This document shows positions 55,555-64,000 of a stretch of 64,000 nucleotides of DNA, one piece after another. The translations under genes were made by a program, and so were the position numbers. The notes under the pieces are model-generated. The model ran no database searches. It was not told the origin of the DNA and saw only the letters and a program-made list of their open reading frames with translations. The stretch is taken from positions 17,425 to 81,424 of the forward strand of contig JACDBH010000002.1 in NCBI GenBank assembly GCA_013694995.1, given 5' to 3'. Position 1 is the first letter of the stretch. Each line of letters opens with the position of its first letter. The DNA comes from Candidatus Saccharimonadota bacterium. GTDB taxonomy: Bacteria; Patescibacteriota; Saccharimonadia; Saccharimonadales; JACDBH01.

Positions 55555-56451
55555 ATGTTCCACCGCCGCCAGAGCGTACCGCGTCAGCGTCCGGACAGTA
55601 TCCGTCCCAGAGGCACTAAGGGCGTTTTTTCTTATTACAGTACCCCAAAAAGCAATGTCAGGCCGGGGAATAGAATGGAAAAGGCCATAGATAACATCGA
55701 AGTTGGGAGTAAAGCTCGTTCATTACCGGTACTAGTTGCCTTATCAGTAATAATATTAAGCATCTTAGCTAGCCTAACGGTTTCTATCCGTCCTAGTGTT
55801 AGTTTTGTCAAAGGTCAGACGGCACTTTATCGCAGCCAGTCGGATTATGAGAATGCCGCCCAAAATATATTAAGTAGGAAATTATCGAACCAAACGAAAC
55901 TTACAATCAACACCGGTAACGTAGAAGAGGAACTTGTAAACAGTTATCCGGAATTAGCAGCTGCAGCCTTTCGTCTGCCGGTTATTGGCCGCCGTGCCAA
56001 TCTTGTACTAGAGCTGAGGTTGCCGGCTATAATCCTGACTACCACTAGTAAGGCATATATACTCGACGACAGCGGGCTAATTGTAAGCGACTTGCAAAGT
56101 CTGGCAGTAGAGGCCAGAAGCGGCCTGCCGGTAGTACTGGATCAGGGAGGACTAGATCTTAAGGTTGGCGACCAGGCGGTTACAAGTGAAACGGTACGAT
56201 TTATACAAGCTATAACTGCGCAGCTTCAGGCCCAAAACCTGGTAGCTTCCCAGTTGACACTACCGGCTTCGGCCAATCAGCTCGACATCATACTTAAAGA
56301 TACTCCTTATTACATCAAAACCGACCTTTCAGGAGATGCAAGGGTGCAACTGGGCAGCTATTTAGCAGTCAAGGGCAGACTACTTAAAGATAATATTACA
56401 CCTGCCGAATATATTGACGTCAGGGTAGAGGAGAAGGTGTTCTATAAGTAA
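55555..56451 (+). CDS. ftsQ: FtsQ/DivIB-like cell division protein
   Basis: 298 aa. Basic cytoplasmic N-terminus, one TM helix, POTRA-like then beta-rich domain. Position after murG. Confidence 0.75.
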   Translation: MFHRRQSVPRQRPDSIRPRGTKGVFSYYSTPKSNVRPGNRMEKAIDNIEVGSKARSLPVLVALSVIILSILASLTVSIRPSVSFVKGQTALYRSQSDYENAAQNILSRKLSNQTKLTINTGNVEEELVNSYPELAAAAFRLPVIGRRANLVLELRLPAIILTTTSKAYILDDSGLIVSDLQSLAVEARSGLPVVLDQGGLDLKVGDQAVTSETVRFIQAITAQLQAQNLVASQLTLPASANQLDIILKDTPYYIKTDLSGDARVQLGSYLAVKGRLLKDNITPAEYIDVRVEEKVFYK

Positions 56452-56668
56452 AGGGTAGAGGGTTAAAGATAAAACGTCGTTAGTAAGCACAGCTGTACTT
56501 AAATCTAAATTCTTGGCCCAACGCCTAGAGAGCAATAAGGGTAGTGCCCCGTTACCCTGCGGGTGTTCATATTATGTTTATATTGTAGGTTGCAGTAAAA
56601 AAACATATAAAAATATAATTATATAAAAAAGCAAATATTGCAAATAGGGAAGGATAAGGTAGGGGTGT

Positions 56669-56708
56669 GGAAAAATCGTGAAAACCATATAGAAAGCAAG
56701 TTTTCACG
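56669..56708 (-). terminator. Intrinsic terminator on the minus strand inside the long spacer
   Basis: CGTGAAAAC (56677-56685) / GTTTTCACG (56700-56708), perfect 9-bp stem. On the minus strand it is followed by ATTTTTCC. Confidence 0.5.
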
Positions 56709-56836
56709 GTAAATAGCAAATACTTAGGCAATATGCTTATAAAATACTATGCAGGTGCTTAAGGCTCTAAATTAAAGTAATGTGAACCGCCTATGCAAAT
56801 AATCCTAAGTTATAAGCATAAATACTATGATAATAG

Positions 56837-56859
56837 TTAAAACTCCCCTGTAGTAGGGG
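56837..56859 (-). terminator. Weak hairpin + U-run on the minus strand downstream of the ATPase gene
   Basis: CCCCT / AGGGG 5-bp stem (56845-56859). Minus-strand tail AGTTTTAA. Confidence 0.3.
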
Positions 56860-56889
56860 TATAGTAAATCATTTACAAATGATATATAA

Positions 56890-56917
56890 GAGTCGTAAAA
56901 TATACATTGTGCGACGT
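56890..56917. other. dif-like 28-bp imperfect palindrome (11-6-11) with TGTATA/TATACA centre
   Basis: GAGTCGTAAAA-TATACA-TTGTGCGACGT. The inner 9-nt arms are complementary at 7 of 9 positions. The central hexamer equals that of E. coli dif as I recall it. Confidence 0.25.
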
Positions 56918-57014
56918 TCTTAATATACCTGCTTTCATTCCCCTAACACTTTCCTAATTACTGGCATTTACTTATTTATTTTTAATTTTTAATTCTTTTT
57001 GCCAATCACCCGCT

Positions 57015-59606
57015 CTAACGCAAGTGGATGATTTCTTCAGTTTCGTTTAAGTGCTTCGGCTGTATGTCTTTAGGTTCAGTATGTTCGTTATTTGTATGGT
57101 TCTGGGCAGCATGTTTTTTATGACGTGATCGAGTGCGTTTATGTTTGGCTGGTGGTTCAGTCTTACTATTTAGCTGAGATTCTACAGCATGGTTAATGAT
57201 AACCCGGGACAGAGTCGCTGCCTTGCCTGTTTCTTCGTGTGGGATTGGACGGTGTTCTTGTAACTGAGGCCTGACAAAGCTGCCCGGAGCTGGGCCAAGC
57301 TTTTTAGCCATGTTTTCCCTAACCCGGGCTTCGACTTCTGCACGGCTTTGGGCATAGTGTTTGCGGGACAGGGCAACAATTTCCTCGGTGTAATCCGCTT
57401 GCACTGGCGGCTGGTTTAAACTGGAACCGGAAAAAGGCGGCGACTTCTCACCATTGATTGTCATGGTACTTACGAAAAATCGATTATGAAGCTGAATCAA
57501 ATCGCCGGGTTCGAACTGCGGGGCGAAGTATTTGCTTAAGAACGAGGCATCATCGGCGCCGACGCGAAAGCTGACCATAGAGCCTACGTTACCAAAAACA
57601 GCGTCTCGGACTACCGGATCCATTTGTGAAACATACTGATTGGCGATGCTTAGATTGAGTCCGTATTTGCGGGCTTCGCTTAAAATAACTGCGAATGAAT
57701 CAGTTGCAAAGTTCTGGAATTCGTCAACATAAAGGTAGAACGGCTTACGTTCGCTCATGCCCACATTGGCCCGGCTCATGGCTGCTAACTGAATCTTAGT
57801 GACCATCAATGCTCCCAATATCGCTGCATTGTCCTCGCCTACAAGGCCCCGGCTTAAGTTAACCATCAATATCTTGCCTTCATCCATAAGTTTACGGATA
57901 CTGAAAGTGCTTTTAGGTTGTCCTACGATGTTTCTAATCATCGGGTTGGCCGTGAAGGCGCCGACTTTATTTAATACCGGTGCAACGGCTTCGGCGGCAA
58001 ACTTATCATTCCAGCTTGCGAACTCTGTCACCCAGAACGTCTTTACTACTGGATCGGTAAGGTATTTAATCACATCGTCTCTGAAGGCTTTCTCTGTCAG
58101 CATGCGGGTAATATCGAGCATAGTTGACTCGGGATAGTCTAGTAGCGCCAGGATGGTATAGCGCAGGATATACTCCAACCTTGGGCCCCAGCTATCGAAC
58201 ATGCGTTTCAAAACGCCTACTAACTCAGAGCTTATGTGATTCTTTAGGCTTTGGTCGGTGACTTCTAACGGATTAAAGCCAATCGGGAATTCCATATCGG
58301 ACGGATTAAAGTAAACCACGTCGTTTAAACGACGTTTTGGGATGAAGCGGAGCATATTTTGGGCATAATCACCGTGCGGATCAATAACACAGAAGCCCTG
58401 GTCGTAATAAATGTCGGATAAGGTCAAAAGTTCAAGCAAGCCGGTTTTGCCGGTGCCAGTCTGCCCAATAACGTAAATATGCCGGCCACGGTCGACACGG
58501 TTCATACCGAAAATTGTGTTAGTACCACGGAAGTTTGTGACACCAAAAAGGCTCAAATCCTGCTCGTTGTCGCCATCTATGACCGGTATATTGGATGGCG
58601 GTTCGGCCGTCTTGGTGGTAGCCCAGACAATATTGGGGGTTTCGACAGAAGTATGCGGCAGGTGAAATAGGCTCGCCAGCTCCTCTATATTCAATATATA
58701 TCCGCTATCGATAAAGAAACGGGCGCGATATTCGGTCAGTTTATCCATGCTAAAACTTGCTGTCTTTCCTTGGAAGCCATTCAAGTTGGTGGTATTAAAC
58801 TGCTTGAAGGCGCCGTGGATAGCCTGCATGCGCAGTTTTGCCATCTGTTGGTCGTGTCCGGCGTAAACTATCCGTATTTTTACCTGATAGCCTAATTTGA
58901 CCCCCTTCTCTTCTATGGCACGTATACGGGTCTTGTCACGCTCGCTTATTTCCGTTGCTCCACTCTTACTGCTCGCTTCAGGTGGCTTTACCAAGGCACC
59001 GAAGGCTTGACCGACAAATGCTGCCCCGGAGCCAGCAAATATGCCTCCCCCGCCCTGGATCTTACGGATCATTTTACTGCCGCGCTTATGCCAGTCATCA
59101 CTTATCGGTCGGGCCAGAATCTGAATCCAAACTTCTTCGTCAGGTTGATCGAGTTTAGCCAACGTGGCTGTTATTGCCGCCAGCGGGTCGACTTCAAAAC
59201 TCGGAAAAGTTTTAATAGGTATTGTTTCGTGGTCAGTCAGAACCAATTCGCTGGTATAGATTACAGATTGATCTAAGCTGCGGGTTGAATAATCATCCGG
59301 TTGTTCATATATCTGCACCGTTGGGTATTGGGCGTAAAGCTGGCCTTCTACGAATGGCTGTAGATGCTTGGGAGTCCAGATATAAAAGCGGATGCGTTGG
59401 CTCATAGCCACCATCTCTAATGAAATATGATCCTGCATGCCACCCTCAAACCGTACTTCCCTTTTTGTACGCAGTATTCCGTGTAAAGCCGCCAGCATCT
59501 GCTCGGCTGCCAGTTCCTTCTTATCGTTGGTGCGTGGAATCTCCAACAGGAGCAGTATGTCCCCGTTTGATTTTCTGCCGGTATTTTTAGTTCGTCGTAA
59601 TTTCAT
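57015..59606 (-). CDS. VirD4/TraG/TraD-like (type IV coupling protein family) ATPase with large N-terminal domain
   Basis: 863 aa. GQTGTGKTG Walker A, VIDPHGDY, FYLYVDEFQNF Walker B and LSIANQY motifs. About 380 aa N-terminal region with no clear TM helices. Basic C-terminal tail. Confidence 0.8.
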   Translation of the reverse strand: MKLRRTKNTGRKSNGDILLLLEIPRTNDKKELAAEQMLAALHGILRTKREVRFEGGMQDHISLEMVAMSQRIRFYIWTPKHLQPFVEGQLYAQYPTVQIYEQPDDYSTRSLDQSVIYTSELVLTDHETIPIKTFPSFEVDPLAAITATLAKLDQPDEEVWIQILARPISDDWHKRGSKMIRKIQGGGGIFAGSGAAFVGQAFGALVKPPEASSKSGATEISERDKTRIRAIEEKGVKLGYQVKIRIVYAGHDQQMAKLRMQAIHGAFKQFNTTNLNGFQGKTASFSMDKLTEYRARFFIDSGYILNIEELASLFHLPHTSVETPNIVWATTKTAEPPSNIPVIDGDNEQDLSLFGVTNFRGTNTIFGMNRVDRGRHIYVIGQTGTGKTGLLELLTLSDIYYDQGFCVIDPHGDYAQNMLRFIPKRRLNDVVYFNPSDMEFPIGFNPLEVTDQSLKNHISSELVGVLKRMFDSWGPRLEYILRYTILALLDYPESTMLDITRMLTEKAFRDDVIKYLTDPVVKTFWVTEFASWNDKFAAEAVAPVLNKVGAFTANPMIRNIVGQPKSTFSIRKLMDEGKILMVNLSRGLVGEDNAAILGALMVTKIQLAAMSRANVGMSERKPFYLYVDEFQNFATDSFAVILSEARKYGLNLSIANQYVSQMDPVVRDAVFGNVGSMVSFRVGADDASFLSKYFAPQFEPGDLIQLHNRFFVSTMTINGEKSPPFSGSSLNQPPVQADYTEEIVALSRKHYAQSRAEVEARVRENMAKKLGPAPGSFVRPQLQEHRPIPHEETGKAATLSRVIINHAVESQLNSKTEPPAKHKRTRSRHKKHAAQNHTNNEHTEPKDIQPKHLNETEEIIHLR

Positions 59607-59699
59607 AAGTCTCTATTTGCTATATGGCTGTATGCCATAAGCAATTCTCACTATATGATTATACAACTAAACAGAACCAACGAATAAGTCCGATAGTTA

Positions 59700-60749
59700 T
59701 TACTTTTCGTCTGTGAGTGAGTAGGTGGCCTTGGCGACTCGTTTAAACTGGGGTTTACCCTGTAGGTTCAAAAGGATAGTTGTCTCTTTGACATAGCGGT
59801 TCTTAAGTACACGCTTGACGATTTCGTCACGATGCAGTGGCTCGCCTGCCTTTTTTAGTACCTCGGTAATAATATCGGCGACGGTTCCCTTCTTATAGCC
59901 CCATTCTTTAAGAGCGTAGATACCACGGCCGATTAATATAAAGCGGTCATCTTTAATAAGCTCGTTATGGATAGCCTGGGTAGTGACGTCCTTGCGCTTA
60001 AAGCTTGAGTCTTTAATTGCAGCTGCAATCTCATTAAAGTGCATGTGTTTACCGTTTTCGTGCAAAATAACATAGATTTTATCGCGAATGTTCTTAGGAT
60101 TGACCATTGGCCATTTAATTAGGCCCCAGCGACCATTAAGGTTGGCAATTTGCTTGCTGATGCTAGCTAGTGCCCGGGTGTGCGCGACGCTTTTGTCTTT
60201 GACGGTCTCGGCTACTATTTCAATCCCGGCCGGTACACCGATTTTCTTAATCGCTTCAACTGTCGCTGTTACCTGATCTTTAAGGGTGTTCTTCTCATGT
60301 TCGCTGGCAATGGCTACAGCATGGTAAAAAAAGTCGTTTTCATCAAGTACGCTAAGTTTTGGGCTGAGGTTGGCTAAGAATGAGACCTGAGCTTGGTCAA
60401 TCTTGCTATTAGCTTTAGTTAAACGTGCGCTCAAGTCACTGACACGAGCAGCCATGCCTAAGCGATGTAGTTCCTGAACCAGTGTTTCCTGAAGCTTTAA
60501 AACATTAACAAAGTCACCCTTCTGAGCACTAGCCTTAAGCTTAGTTATAACTGCTTTCTCTAGCTGACGAACGCGTTCACGAGTAATACCCAAGAGTTCG
60601 CCTATTTGTTCCAATGTCTCTTTGCGGTCAAATAATCCAAAACGACGTGAAATAATTTCGCGCTCGCGCTCGCGCTCGATGGTATCAAGCACACTTCGAA
60701 CGACAGATTCGATTTGGGGTTCCGCAGCTTTAGGAGTAGTTTCGGCCAT
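59700..60749 (-). CDS. Sigma-70 region-4-like HTH fused to two HARE-HTH-like domains
   Basis: 349 aa. REREIISRRFGL..TLEQIGELLGITRERVRQLEKAVITKL is region 4.2-like. MHFNEIAAAI...DDRFILIGRGIYALKEWGY and PLHRDEIVKRVL...FKRVAKATYSL are HARE-like. Confidence 0.7.
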   Translation of the reverse strand: MAETTPKAAEPQIESVVRSVLDTIEREREREIISRRFGLFDRKETLEQIGELLGITRERVRQLEKAVITKLKASAQKGDFVNVLKLQETLVQELHRLGMAARVSDLSARLTKANSKIDQAQVSFLANLSPKLSVLDENDFFYHAVAIASEHEKNTLKDQVTATVEAIKKIGVPAGIEIVAETVKDKSVAHTRALASISKQIANLNGRWGLIKWPMVNPKNIRDKIYVILHENGKHMHFNEIAAAIKDSSFKRKDVTTQAIHNELIKDDRFILIGRGIYALKEWGYKKGTVADIITEVLKKAGEPLHRDEIVKRVLKNRYVKETTILLNLQGKPQFKRVAKATYSLTDEK

Positions 60750-61149
60750 TTGAAGGTATTTCTCGCTTTCCTGTTAGTATAAATAACACCTATGCTAATG
60801 CTATTTTAACAGCTATATTTTTAAATGTCAAACATATTTCGCCCGTGTTTTTCTATAACTTATTGTAGCATTGAATAGCCAAGTATGCACAAATTGTTTA
60901 TGGTAAATTACTAAAACACTTTTTTGCTAATCTGTAGAACCCGTGGACATCTGTTGTAAATTTGTTAAATATGATTTTTTAGTAATGCAATTTTATCCAA
61001 AGTTATGTCCTGCCCTCTCCCTCAACAAAGAAGCCTGACTTTTTCTATCTCCGGCCAAAGAACCAATGCTACTTACTATGGACAACCAGAGTGAGACAAA
61101 GCTGTTGGACTGCGTTTTTAGTGGCCTGGCTCTTATTAAAAGAAAAGAC

Positions 61150-63441
61150 TCACTTTTTCTTAGTAAACTTCCGCTTTACAAACCGTTTTTTAGCCGGCGC
61201 TTCATCCAATAACTTTTGAGCGGCCTTTTTATCCAAAGTAGTTGGGTCTATATCCTTAGGTATACGGGCATTTTTCTTGCCATCCGTAACGTACGGTCCG
61301 TAAGGACCACGGAGGATTTTAATCTTACCGAAGTCGGCGACGTTACGTTCGGCAATTTGTACCTGCTTGTCCGCAATAAGTTGCCGGGCTTCCGATTCGG
61401 TAATAGTAAATGGGCTTAAGTCTTTGATTGAAACATACATCTTTTCCACTTGGACATACGGTCCAAAGCGGCCCAGGTCTGCTGTAATTGTCTTGCCGTC
61501 AGGAGTTGTACCAACTGTTCGTGGTAGATCAAACATCGGCAGGGCTTGCTCTAAAGTAACATTGTCCATAGTGGCACCATCTGGCATCGGCGCGAAGGCC
61601 GGCTTTTCTTCTTCTGCTGTTTCGCCTCGTTGAAGCATCGGACCATATCGCCCGAAACGTACGACAATTGGCTTACCAGATTTAGGGTCGGCGCCAAGTG
61701 TCCTGGACTGGCTAGTTTCCTCACGGGTTACATCGGCGGAAGCTTTAATAAGCGGCTTAAAAGCGTCGTTATAAAATTCACTAATCATTTTATTCCATTT
61801 GGTTTTGCCGTCGGCAATGTCGTCGAATTCTTTCTCGGCCTTCACGGTAAATTCGTAGTCGACAATAGGCATAAAATACTTGGTTAAAAAGTCAGTCGTA
61901 ATTTCGGCGACTGGCGTTGGCAGTAATTTGTTCTTGTCAGCTCCTGCAGTAACGGTCTCTTTACTTTTGGTAATCTTGCTGTTTTTTAATTTGAGGCTGT
62001 TGATTTCGCGCTGCTCACCCTCCAAATCCCTTTTTTCGATATAACCGCGGTCCTGGATGGTCGAGATTGTTGGTGCGTAGGTACTAGGTCGGCCGATCCC
62101 CATCTCTTCCATGGCTCTAACTAGGGTCGCTTCAGAATAGCGAGCCGGTGCCCGGCTAAAGGTCTCGGTGGCAGTTATGCTTTCGGCTTCGACTGCCTGG
62201 CTTTGTTTGAGAAAAGGTAGCAAAGTATCGTCCTTACCCCCGCCGTATACCTTTAAAAAGCCATCGAATATTAATATTTCGCCCTTAGCTACAAATTGTT
62301 CTTTACGGTTGCTAACAGATATAACAATCTCAGTTCGATCGACTTTGGCAGGTGCCATTTGACTAGAAACCGCCCGCTGCCAGATAAGCTTGTAGAGCTT
62401 TTTCTGTTGTTCGTCATTACCTGCTGAGTTTTTACTGAAATCGGTAGGACGGATGGCTTCGTGGGCTTCTTGTGCCGAGCTGTTTTTGGTCTTATATTGC
62501 CTAACTTGATGGTAGTCTTTGCCGTAAGAACTTATAATAAATTTTTCAGCAGCTCCGATTGCCTGTCCAGACAATATGGTACTATCGGTGCGCATATAAG
62601 TTATAAGTCCGGATTCGTACAAACGCTGGGCGAGCGACATGGTCTGACGGACAGAATAACCTAAACGACGGGAAGCTTCCTGCTGCAGGGTGCTGGTTGT
62701 AAAAGGTGCCCCTGGGTTGCGGGTCCCGGGTTTTTTCTCGACGCTGATTACCTTAAATTCAGCGCCTATGCAAGCAGTAAGGAATTCTTCAGCCTTGGCA
62801 GACGAATCCGGTTTGGTATTGAGTTCGGCGGTGAAGTTCTGTTTAGATGCTAAAAAGTCACCGGTAATCCTAAAGCTACTTAAAGCGGTAAAATCTTTAA
62901 TTTCCCGCTCGCGTTCAACGATAATTCGTACAGCCACGGACTGGACCCGACCGGCGCTCAAACCCGCCCGAACCTTTTTCCATAATACAGGCGACAATTC
63001 ATAACCGACCAGCCTGTCCAGTACACGCCTGGCCTGCTGTGCGTCAACAAGCCGAAGGTCTACAGTTCGTGGCTTTTCAATCGCTGCTATAATTGCCGGC
63101 TTTGTAATTTCGTGGAATACGATCCGTTTGGTAGTTTTGGGATTAAGGCCGAGAGCAATGCATAAATGCCAGGCAATAGCTTCGCCTTCGCGGTCTTCAT
63201 CACTTGCCAGCCAGACATCATGGGTTTTAGATAACTTTTTAAGGTCACTGATAACCTTCTTTTTATCCGGTGAAATCTCATAAGTAGGCTCAAAATTCTT
63301 GGACTTATCGATACTCAAGCCTTTTTTAGGCAAATCACGTATGTGGCCAAAGCTGCTCCGGACAGTAAAATCCTTACCTAGGTATTTCTCTATCGTCTTG
63401 GCTTTAGCCGGGCTCTCTACTATTACTAAGTTCTTACTCAT
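61150..63441 (-). CDS. topA: DNA topoisomerase I (Cys-less C-terminal repeats)
   Basis: 763 aa. TOPRIM LVIVESPAKAKTIEKYLG and active-site GLITYMRTDS. C-terminal GRYGPM/GRFGPY/GPYGPY repeats and a Lys tail. Confidence 0.96.
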   Translation of the reverse strand: MSKNLVIVESPAKAKTIEKYLGKDFTVRSSFGHIRDLPKKGLSIDKSKNFEPTYEISPDKKKVISDLKKLSKTHDVWLASDEDREGEAIAWHLCIALGLNPKTTKRIVFHEITKPAIIAAIEKPRTVDLRLVDAQQARRVLDRLVGYELSPVLWKKVRAGLSAGRVQSVAVRIIVEREREIKDFTALSSFRITGDFLASKQNFTAELNTKPDSSAKAEEFLTACIGAEFKVISVEKKPGTRNPGAPFTTSTLQQEASRRLGYSVRQTMSLAQRLYESGLITYMRTDSTILSGQAIGAAEKFIISSYGKDYHQVRQYKTKNSSAQEAHEAIRPTDFSKNSAGNDEQQKKLYKLIWQRAVSSQMAPAKVDRTEIVISVSNRKEQFVAKGEILIFDGFLKVYGGGKDDTLLPFLKQSQAVEAESITATETFSRAPARYSEATLVRAMEEMGIGRPSTYAPTISTIQDRGYIEKRDLEGEQREINSLKLKNSKITKSKETVTAGADKNKLLPTPVAEITTDFLTKYFMPIVDYEFTVKAEKEFDDIADGKTKWNKMISEFYNDAFKPLIKASADVTREETSQSRTLGADPKSGKPIVVRFGRYGPMLQRGETAEEEKPAFAPMPDGATMDNVTLEQALPMFDLPRTVGTTPDGKTITADLGRFGPYVQVEKMYVSIKDLSPFTITESEARQLIADKQVQIAERNVADFGKIKILRGPYGPYVTDGKKNARIPKDIDPTTLDKKAAQKLLDEAPAKKRFVKRKFTKKK

Positions 63442-63454
63442 GCTTATGTTTTAC

Positions 63455-63469
63455 TAGTCTACCAGACTA
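63455..63469. promoter_or_regulatory. 15-bp palindrome TAGTCTaccAGACTA overlapping the likely topA -10
   Basis: Perfect 6-bp arms. Minus-strand TAGACT lies 14 nt upstream of the topA ATG. Confidence 0.3.
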
Positions 63470-63560
63470 ATTAATTTTCCTCGTAGGGCAATCAGTACCC
63501 TACGTGATTTTTATTACATTCGCAAGCATTTCATACTTTTCGTTCTTTTGAACTCTTCAG

Positions 63561-63578
63561 AACGATTGCGCAATCGTT
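63561..63578. promoter_or_regulatory. Perfect 18-bp palindrome AACGATTGCGCAATCGTT upstream of topA
   Basis: Reads identically on both strands. Lies about 120 bp upstream of the topA start in the spacer to the next minus-strand gene. Confidence 0.35.
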
Positions 63579-63683
63579 TAAGTATGTAAGCGCTGGAAAG
63601 AAAATGTGTTGTTCCTGAGCCGGAAAGGTTTGCAATGGTTCCCCACTACACATCTTTACCCTTCCGGCTTTGCCTTCCATTCG

Positions 63684-64000
63684 TCAGTCCGTGGCGAACC
63701 TCCGATCCCAAAGGATATGGTATTGACCGAGACGGTGCTCGATCTGATCGAGTTCGCCCGAGCCAAGGCCTATGGCCTTCAGCTGACGACGTGACATCAG
63801 AATCAAGCTTGCAATCGTTTTGACATCGTTCAAATTGAGCGACTCGACGATGTCGGTATCCAACCCGAGACTAGTGACTGATGATTCCGGTGCGAGTAAT
63901 TCGCTCCATGTCTCGGTTCTGGTATACCAGTTGTAGCCCAGGGTGTAGCCCAGTGTTTCGAGCTCGGTCCTGCATGCTTTGATCGTGTCTTCGATTCGCG
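63684..64000 (-). CDS. Partial CDS (C-terminal about 105 aa) with RpoA-alphaCTD-like helix-hairpin-helix
   Basis: Hand-translated open frame running from the window edge to a TGA at 63686-63684. Ends ...LGLDTDIVESLNLNDVKTIASLILMSRRQLKAIGLGSGELDQIEHRLGQY... Not in the ORF track because it has no start in the window. Confidence 0.5.
   Translation of the reverse strand, partial: RIEDTIKACRTELETLGYTLGYNWYTRTETWSELLAPESSVTSLGLDTDIVESLNLNDVKTIASLILMSRRQLKAIGLGSGELDQIEHRLGQYHILWDRRFATD

Follow-up and report, generated by a model that had tools for sequence, protein, structure and literature searches.

A sigma70 domain 4 followed by four winged-helix domains

When the window, a 64,000-nucleotide stretch of a Candidatus Saccharimonadota bacterium genome (contig JACDBH010000002.1, positions 17,425 to 81,424), was analyzed, a minus-strand open reading frame (ORF) was found to encode a protein in which domain 4 of sigma70 (sigma4) precedes a tandem array of winged-helix (WH) domains; gene and protein are here called X (Table 1). 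A Pfam scan, proposed in an earlier note on this DNA, places both Sigma70_r4 and HARE-HTH above cut-off. The Sigma70_r4 match covers residues 27-72 (E = 9.4e-13, 47.9 bits, gathering score 24.1), and the NCBIfam sigma models (SigB, RpoS, RpoD, RpoH, ECF) align by their last ~65 positions alone, to residues ~9-77. All 60 matches listed from a phmmer search of the PDB (of 73 up to E = 1) are to sigma region 4, with Mycobacterium tuberculosis (Mtb) SigB 271-332 aligning to residues 13-74. The earlier note was right to recognize sigma4 in the N-terminal ~75 aa but too narrow in calling it region 4.2, as region 4.1 is also covered. An AlphaFold2 (AF2) model of X, built on an alignment of 99 family sequences (mean predicted local distance difference test score, pLDDT, 86.8; predicted template modeling score, pTM, 0.69), places the sigma4 helices at residues 13-22, 27-36, 46-53 and 57-76, and the recognition helix reads TRERVRQLE. 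Foldseek comparison of this model with the PDB gives two types of match: the sigma part matches region 4 of sigmaA with a root-mean-square deviation (rmsd) of 0.8-2.9 Å, mostly ~2 Å or less, and 36-46% identity (for example 8cwr_B, 0.9 Å and 46%; 7kuf_B, 1.8 Å and 40%), and the other matches are to the tandem-WH proteins UFL1/DDRGK1 (8b9x), the SelB C-terminus (1lva) and Dcc1.

Sigma region 2 or 3 was found in X by none of the Pfam and NCBIfam searches at E ≤ 1, the phmmer search of the PDB, the AF2 model or Foldseek, the last of which returned nothing like sigma2 or sigma3 from the PDB. Sigma70_r3 has no Pfam match, and sigma4 begins at residue 13, with no region 3.2 linker before it. Lacking sigma2, sigma3 and the 3.2 linker, X is unable to engage the beta-prime coiled coil, to melt the −10 element or to serve as an initiation factor, and the earlier note's view that it is no conventional sigma factor therefore stands.

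Four consecutive WH modules follow sigma4 in the AF2 model (WH1 to WH4, residues 81-147, 156-210, 221-280 and 290-345). WH2, WH3 and WH4 each have an H-H-H-S-S topology, and that of WH1 is H-S-H-H-S-S (H81-97, E100-102, H103-110, H116-128, E132-135, E144-147). The two HARE-HTH segments that had been read in the C-terminal half are borne out by Pfam HARE-HTH (PF05066; E = 9.6e-10, 39.2 bits, cut-off 25.9), which matches in two stretches, the strongest (residues 288-325) in WH4. The model for the delta subunit of RNA polymerase (RNAP), TIGR04567, aligns to residues 223-283 with 40.4 bits (cut-off 42), and hhalign relates WH3 to WH4 at 96% probability. From these profile matches, we regard the last two WH domains as bona fide HARE-HTH domains.

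The central ~120 aa, earlier described as a helical linker, are better read as two divergent winged helices. When slices of the family alignment are compared by hhalign, residues 140-216 (WH2) match WH3 at 95.8% and WH4 at 96.2% probability, and residues 85-150 (WH1) match WH4 at 89% and WH2 at 90%; WH2 also matches the N-terminal domain of Bacillus subtilis delta at 67%, via a common WGLxxW motif. Pfam WH_Rok is found in one relative, P0274 (32.6 bits, cut-off 27.6; top stretch residues 159-199, no single stretch being significant alone), sub-threshold TFIIE_beta matches occur in the central region of two relatives, and one distant family member has three HARE-HTH stretches. Scanned alone, the central region of X, WH1 included, matches no Pfam family, and its profile gives non-significant WH matches only in the PDB (Rok, E = 0.11; delta, E = 0.95), so the WH assignment of the center rests on hhalign, the AF2 topology and the Pfam matches of relatives. 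X is accordingly sigma4 plus four WH domains, the central two being divergent copies of the C-terminal repeat, with the assignment of WH1 probable.

The protein is basic (pI 9.6; family median 9.5). Sigma4, WH3 and WH4 are basic throughout the family (median pI 9.7-9.9; WH4 of X, 9.75), and WH1 and WH2 are neutral to acidic. X has no acidic C-terminal tail: the chain stops 4 residues past WH4 as modeled, and the acidic fraction of the last 40 residues has a family median of 0.10 and a maximum of 0.225.

Table 1. Features of the X locus, in window coordinates.
Feature	Position	Strand	Basis and remarks
X coding sequence	59700..60749	−	349 aa, ATG start; sigma70 domain 4, then four tandem WH domains
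Sigma70 domain 4, regions 4.1 and 4.2 (X aa 13-76)	60522..60713	−	Pfam, phmmer, Foldseek, AF2
WH1 (X aa 81-147), probable divergent winged helix	60309..60509	−	AF2 topology, hhalign
WH2 (X aa 156-212), divergent HARE-HTH-like winged helix	60114..60284	−	hhalign, WH_Rok in a relative, AF2
WH3 (X aa 221-283), HARE-HTH, basic	59901..60089	−	Pfam HARE-HTH, TIGR04567, conservation
WH4 (X aa 288-349), HARE-HTH, basic	59703..59888	−	Pfam, hhalign, AF2
X promoter, TTGACA-17-TAAAAT with upstream TG	60803..60831	−	11/12 positions match; sigma70-type
Conserved non-coding block upstream of the X promoter	60862..60950	−	Alignment of related loci; holds TGCTACAAT, TTACCATAAACAATTTGTGCA and ATGTCCAC
topA, upstream neighbor of X	61150..63441	−	Pfam; conserved in Saccharibacteria
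DUF8128-like and TrwB/VirD4-like ATPase fusion, 863 aa, downstream of X	57015..59606	−	Pfam, blastp, synteny
Extended −10 of the 863-aa gene, TGTATAAT	59665..59658	−	Read by eye; in most close relatives carrying the gene

Conservation of the family and of the −35-contact residues

Conservation was read from family alignments reaching down to 31% identity. Within sigma4 the most constrained stretches are RRFGL...TLExIG...TRERVRQIE. WH2 ends in a conserved G-x-WGL-xx-WP, and the junction between WH2 and WH3 is constrained as GxWGLxxWP...P+xIRDK. The most conserved part of the family is WH3 (PLHFxxIA...QTVHNELIxDxRFVLVGRGIYALxEWGY), in which HNEL is invariant in the third helix and G-R-G lies at the hairpin tip; constraint in WH4 follows GTVxDVI...PL...EI...VLKxRxVKxxTIxLNLQ...F.R...Y.L.

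X was mapped onto region 4 of Thermus sigmaA by the phmmer alignment (1ku3_A chain positions 12-61 correspond to X 26-74). The residues of sigmaA that touch the −35 element were reportedly described from structure 1KU7 by Campbell and co-workers in 2002, and we take them to be R379, R387, L398, E399, T408, R409, E410, R411, R413, Q414 and K418, with R28, R36, L46, E47, T56, R57, E58, R59, R61, Q62 and A66 as their counterparts in X. Ten of these eleven contacts are identical (all but A66 for K418), and most are at least 90% conserved across the family. This retention is our main argument that the sigma4 of X would still read a TTGACA-like hexamer.

Distribution of the family and an apparent essential ortholog

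Close relatives of X are encoded in 480 stretches of a species-representative genome collection; among the 80 best, almost every title names Saccharibacteria, Saccharimonadales or Patescibacteria. An exhaustive search of 50%-identity representatives gave 604 clusters at E ≤ 1e-30, the best 150 of which are mostly full-length down to ~34% identity, with some fragments; the 120 best protein matches listed, from at least 8000 candidates, all carry PF04545 and PF05066, and the length and architecture of X are kept in thousands of sequences. A profile of the most distant members retrieved proteins named from Peregrinibacteria/Peribacteraceae, Doudnabacteria and the 'Patescibacteria group'. The phyletic distribution, which the earlier note had suggested determining, thus covers several lineages of ultra-small Patescibacteria (CPR): to judge from these matches the family spans Saccharibacteria, Peregrinibacteria, Doudnabacteria and others. 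Its members go by many names, among them hypothetical, 'sigma factor-like helix-turn-helix DNA-binding protein', 'HTH domain-containing', 'RNA polymerase delta subunit' and 'CsgD family'. Our literature search, whose reach did not extend to the HARE-HTH paper of Aravind and Iyer (2012), found no discussion of the family.

Beyond Patescibacteria, only remote relatives were found, at ~25% identity, as parts of larger plasmid proteins in defence-type neighborhoods. One, on a Pontibrevibacter plasmid (NZ_CP049815.1, 57059-60112), sits within a protein of 1017 aa beside Dnd phosphorothioation restriction genes; the other, on an Abditibacteriota plasmid (AP024153.1), sits within a protein of 568 aa, with an Eco57I-like methylase and DUF4007 as neighbors. 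Their annotations read 'sigma factor-like HTH protein' in one case and 'rpoD' in the other. Their position beside defence genes suggests that the sigma4 plus WH module is also used in defence-island proteins; in PADLOC, the sigma4 part of X alone matches MzaA. No match to X was found in phage genomes by tblastn, and neither the window nor the flanks of related loci contained a paralog of X or any other sigma-like ORF. Two irregular members were seen. The representative search returned a predicted SecF-X fusion (P0174, 659 aa; SecD_SecF_C, Sigma70_r4 and HARE-HTH), which is probably a gene-calling or frameshift artefact and fits the secF-X adjacency described below; and in one metagenome-assembled genome (L014, 5944-7091) the homolog of X is broken into two ORFs that overlap, at what looks like a frameshift and is most likely an error of assembly.

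SEML1_0294, a gene of Southlakia epibionticum ML1 that appears in supplementary tables of Wang et al. (Cell 2023; PMC10633639), is an apparent ortholog of X, inferred from identical length, domain coordinates and gene order. It has 1050 bp (349 aa), the PROKKA name 'RNA polymerase sigma factor RpoS', and Pfam matches to PF04545 at 27-72 and PF05066 at 225-283; a structure-based parse in the same tables divides it into a sigma-like segment (6-155) and three 'winged' segments (156-215, 216-285, 286-345), and assigns the second of these, the counterpart of WH3, to ECOD domain e7f75L1 (7F75 chain L is the delta subunit of B. subtilis). SEML1_0294 is flagged 'core family' and 'Patescibacteria enriched', and is called essential by transposon sequencing (Tn-seq) in all three calls (ES/ES/ES), with 24 insertions in the input DNA and 1, 1 and 2 after selection (PMC10633639). 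It lies beside topA (SEML1_0296, essential), one hypothetical gene, and SEML1_0293, a gene like those of type IV coupling proteins (T4CPs) that is non-essential (NE/NE/NE). 'Sigma' occurs only twice in the Tn-seq table, for SEML1_0294 and for a complete RpoD of 332 aa with regions 1.2, 2, 3 and 4, and SEML1_0294 goes unmentioned in the paper's main text (PMC10633639). Through this apparent ortholog, and on the strength of the literature, the X family appears to be essential in S. epibionticum.

Promoter and upstream region

The earlier note had given X its own promoter and a 400-bp AT-rich upstream spacer, and both hold. The spacer (60750-61149) has a GC content of 0.34-0.39, and 66 of 73 related loci have a counterpart of the promoter, of the type TTGAC[AT]-N16-18-TAnnnT, ~50-150 bp (mostly 60-110 bp) before the start codon, so X has its own conserved sigma70-type promoter.

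Upstream of this promoter, alignment of the related loci brings out a conserved non-coding block whose elements mostly stand at similar offsets. CTA[CG]AAT occurs in 49/73 loci and reads TGCTACAAT, which is extended −10-like, in close relatives; TTACCATAAACAATTTGTGCA is confined to the closest relatives, and TTACCATAAAC...TGTGC to the 16 closest. A perfect DnaA-box-like sequence, TTATCCAC, is found in 43/73 loci, usually ~105-125 bp upstream of the TTGAC −35 hexamer; the same position reads ATGTCCAC in the window. Elsewhere in the window neither TTATCCAC nor a 21-mer of the block is enriched, the 21-mer occurring once. The block could contain a second (tandem) promoter, or serve DnaA-type control or autoregulation. 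Rfam at E ≤ 1 on 56000-64000 finds no structured RNA in the spacer, and neither structured RNA nor tRNA was found anywhere in the window by Rfam at gathering score and ARAGORN.

Genomic context and the DUF8128/VirD4-like ATPase

On the minus strand of the window the order is topA, the 400-bp spacer, X, a 93-bp gap and an ORF of 863 aa, which is convergent to the end of the dcw cluster (ftsI, mraY, ftsW, murG and a 298-aa ORF). Among the 80 closest loci (the best 80 of the 480 stretches), topA precedes X on the same strand in 66. A homolog of the 863-aa ORF follows X in 16 and is not found there in the other 64, where X is still 67-91% identical.

By Pfam, a TrwB/VirD4-type ATPase of the HerA/FtsK class makes up the C-terminal half of the 863-aa protein, whose residues 1-365 are homologous to separate DUF8128 proteins (blastp E = 1e-35 to that of locus L083). 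The protein matches phrog_5156 (unknown function) over near full length (E = 4e-71), and its ATPase part matches the PADLOC mad8, HerA and DndH models. A profile of the DUF8128-like domain has no match in the PDB or Pfam, and a single-sequence AF2 model of it is unusable (pLDDT 33). Most DUF8128 proteins begin with a hydrophobic, transmembrane (TM)-like segment, which is not present on the fused version in the window and its closest relatives.

Other Patescibacteria have the order secD-secF-X-DUF8128-TrwB-like ATPase-(mnmA), with DUF8128 and ATPase as two genes. DUF8128 starts within ~300 bp of the X stop in ~23 of 27 non-Saccharibacterial loci with enough downstream sequence; the spacing is usually a gap of ~8-100 bp or an overlap (4 bp in L168). 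The secD-secF-X-DUF8128-TrwB block (L083-L107, L166-L168) is kept where X identity is only 31-40%, with some junctions overlapping, and in L083 the TrwB-like gene is present as a tandem pair. Peregrinibacteria depart from this order and have rpsT-ruvX-X-two unknown genes-recA-dnaB. The conserved order elsewhere indicates an ancestral operon that joined X to genes for a membrane DUF8128 protein and a VirD4-like ATPase.

The 93-bp gap between X and the fusion gene (59607-59699) contains TGTATAAT followed by a conserved GCTTATGG motif, which is here a short inverted repeat (TATGGC-ATACA-GCCATA). Together they suggest a separate promoter and leader for the T4CP-like gene in Saccharibacteria; with a conserved extended −10 in front of the T4CP-like gene, this gene and X are separate transcription units in this lineage.

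A 2025 preprint surveying 2,918 Patescibacteria genomes counted 5,713 VirD4-like T4CPs, only 148 of them near virB4, and found relaxases to be rare and absent from most genomes; its authors suggest that the T4CPs have been exapted, and X is not mentioned (10.1101/2025.01.22.634366). In defence proteins of the DndH type, HerA/FtsK ATPases have been described with sigma-related HTH domains fused or linked to them (PMC10853773).

Elsewhere at this end of the locus, the 298-aa ORF after murG (55555-56451, plus strand) has no Pfam match at E ≤ 1e-5 and is detected by tblastn in 66 of the 80 related loci; an FtsQ/DivIB-like gene is one possibility. It is followed by a convergent intergenic region, 56452-57014, that is very AT-rich (GC 0.29-0.34).

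Discussion

The domains of X were already known, as was the family, which databases and one supplementary table contain, frequently under the wrong names RpoS, RpoD or delta. X is a non-sigma protein built from sigma4 and a HARE-HTH array. Its first domain resembles sigma70 domain 4 of primary and group-2 sigma factors in fold, in sequence (40-46% identity, rmsd ~1-2 Å) and in the TRERVRQ(I/L)E helix. Unlike in sigma factors, however, sigma4 is N-terminal in X and comes without sigma2, sigma3 or the region 3.2 linker.

Our favored explanation, which we hold tentatively and at somewhat less than even confidence, is that X is a sequence-specific DNA-binding factor that would read −35-like hexamers and act at promoters. 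Isolated sigma4 binds −35 DNA, as in 1KU7, which makes it plausible that the helix-turn-helix of sigma4 in X would read a TTGACA hexamer on double-stranded DNA independently of RNAP. The basic, near-invariant WH3 and WH4 would then touch flanking DNA or a conserved partner, and the less conserved, neutral WH1 and WH2 may serve as a spacer or as protein-interaction modules. Positioned at or near promoters, X would occupy or mark −35 elements, either as a regulator of global reach or as an architectural factor, an essential job where the Tn-seq table lists one sigma-annotated gene besides X. The ancestral operon link to DUF8128 and the VirD4-like ATPase suggests a second, dispensable role for X, as the partner that recognizes DNA for this translocase. 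The earlier note had guessed at an RNAP accessory factor or a nucleoid protein, and X may be either; the basic character of the protein (pI 9.6) and the ten of eleven −35-contact residues that are kept favor DNA binding, and the missing acidic tail speaks against a delta-type subunit.

Several points weigh against this explanation. Constraints of the fold could partly explain why the −35-contact residues are kept. Within the holoenzyme, sigma4 uses the same surface to dock on the beta-flap tip, so the sequence is equally compatible with RNAP binding, and the HARE-HTH of delta, a type of domain that X carries, is an RNAP-binding module and not a DNA-binding one. Extra TTGACA copies or recognizable operator arrays were looked for near X and none were found, and SEML1_0294 is taken as an ortholog because of its length, domain coordinates and gene context rather than from an alignment. 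The analysis establishes the domain architecture, basic charge, conservation, spread across lineages and synteny of X, and the literature provides the essentiality of the apparent ortholog; DNA binding, its target sequence and its regulatory consequence we infer.

The strongest competing explanation, possible although we think it unlikely, is that X is an RNAP-bound accessory subunit, with its sigma4 on the beta-flap tip and its delta-like HARE-HTH on beta-prime, where B. subtilis delta also binds. X would then compete with region 4 of RpoD, or bind after sigma release in elongation, and would modulate promoter selectivity, pausing or recycling. Consistent with this, sigma4 is complete, including the first helix of region 4.1 (residues 13-22), and is 40-46% identical to sigmaA region 4 crystallized with the flap tip; the delta model gives WH3 40.4 bits; the counterpart of WH3 in SEML1_0294 carries the ECOD assignment of delta; and essentiality is as for core transcription genes. 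Likeness to the RNAP delta subunit (RpoE) of Bacillota (TIGR04567; 2KRC, 7F75 chain L) extends to the HARE-HTH fold and to the WGLxxW of WH2. However, X has four WH domains where delta has one, carries sigma4 and occurs in a different phylum; it is basic where delta is strongly acidic, and it lacks the polyanionic C-terminal tail that gives delta its activity. The score of WH3 falls below the cut-off of the delta model (40.4 versus 42 bits), profile searches of the PDB recovered no delta with WH2-WH4 and delta at E = 0.95 only with WH1-WH2, and the kept DNA-contact residues of sigma4 would not be required for flap binding alone. X as the delta subunit itself was rejected on the missing acidic tail and the basic charge, together with a model score just short of the cut-off.

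A further explanation, which we consider quite doubtful, is that X is the DNA-recognition adaptor of the DUF8128/VirD4-like membrane ATPase, loading or orienting this translocase for DNA transfer, uptake or segregation. The order X-DUF8128-TrwB-like ATPase is kept across deeply diverged Patescibacteria with the genes overlapping or close, DUF8128 proteins have an N-terminal TM segment as T4CPs do, and the association of sigma-related HTH domains with HerA/FtsK ATPases in DndH-type systems (PMC10853773) and the mostly virB4-distant, possibly exapted T4CP genes of Patescibacteria (10.1101/2025.01.22.634366) would fit such a role. X indeed resembles T4CP accessories (TraM, TrwA, PcfF) and the HTH modules of DndH variants and MzaA-type proteins in being encoded beside a VirD4/HerA/FtsK-class ATPase, as it is in the window and in ~23 of 27 loci outside Saccharibacteria; a sigma-related HTH, such as X has, is also present in some of the defence proteins, and the winged-helix gamma domain of FtsK would be another analogue. 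Unlike T4CP accessories, however, X is a chromosomal, essential core gene of a different fold, off mobile elements and without a relaxase. In S. epibionticum X is essential but the adjoining T4CP-like gene is not (PMC10633639), most of the closest Saccharibacterial loci (64/80) have no such gene after a well-conserved X, both genes there have separate conserved promoters and variable spacing, and with secDF and mnmA in the same conserved block part of the linkage may be inherited synteny. Because the T4CP is dispensable, the adjacency mostly lost and the promoters separate, the adaptor role is weakened as the essential function of X. X as a relaxosome-type accessory dependent on a T4CP is not borne out by the literature: the apparent ortholog is essential, the T4CP-like gene non-essential, and relaxases absent from most Patescibacteria genomes.

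It is extremely improbable that X represents a decayed or wrongly named sigma factor (RpoS or RpoD) or a truncated gene, as the names RpoS, RpoD and delta subunit given to family members or distant relatives by PROKKA, JGI and one plasmid record might imply: the ORF is full length with length and architecture conserved in thousands of sequences, sigma4 is followed by winged helices, no region 2 or 3 is present, and S. epibionticum, the one related genome checked, has a complete RpoD.

Two other comparisons are instructive. In split sigmas (B. subtilis SigO-RsoA and phage T4 gp55/gp33) the sigma functions lie on separate polypeptides, so that a sigma4-type module can work in trans. X differs in having no sigma2-like gene nearby, its neighbors being topA and the DUF8128/TrwB-like ATPase, and the RpoD of S. 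epibionticum has its own region 4; a two-subunit sigma was thus not found. Tandem WH arrays (SelB C-terminal WH1-4, UFL1/DDRGK1, Dcc1, Rok) are the best whole-chain Foldseek matches of X, but they have no sequence homology to it, their partners are RNA, the ribosome or the clamp loader, and none has sigma4. A broader proposal, which we regard as doubtful, is that X is a free-standing, essential sigma4 in trans, a Patescibacteria-specific promoter reader that would occupy the −35 element, the beta-flap or both apart from the single sigma factor and would ancestrally have coupled this reading to a membrane VirD4-like DNA translocase.

X joins two modules otherwise known from RNAP subunits, sigma4 and the HARE-HTH of delta, and thereby offers a concrete, testable entry to patescibacterial transcription or chromosome biology. 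A large part of bacterial diversity belongs to Patescibacteria, which have tiny genomes and, in the one table checked, a single sigma factor; X is one of their enriched core genes and is essential in the one species with Tn-seq data. Recognizing it corrects a recurrent mis-annotation by which genomes seem to have two sigma factors when they have one, and the conserved operon in which it accompanies DUF8128 and an orphan VirD4-like ATPase is a lead on what the widespread 'exapted' T4CPs may do. S. epibionticum is now genetically tractable, so X is directly testable; if sigma4 does read in trans, it would represent a mode of promoter or chromosome handling without a characterized counterpart.

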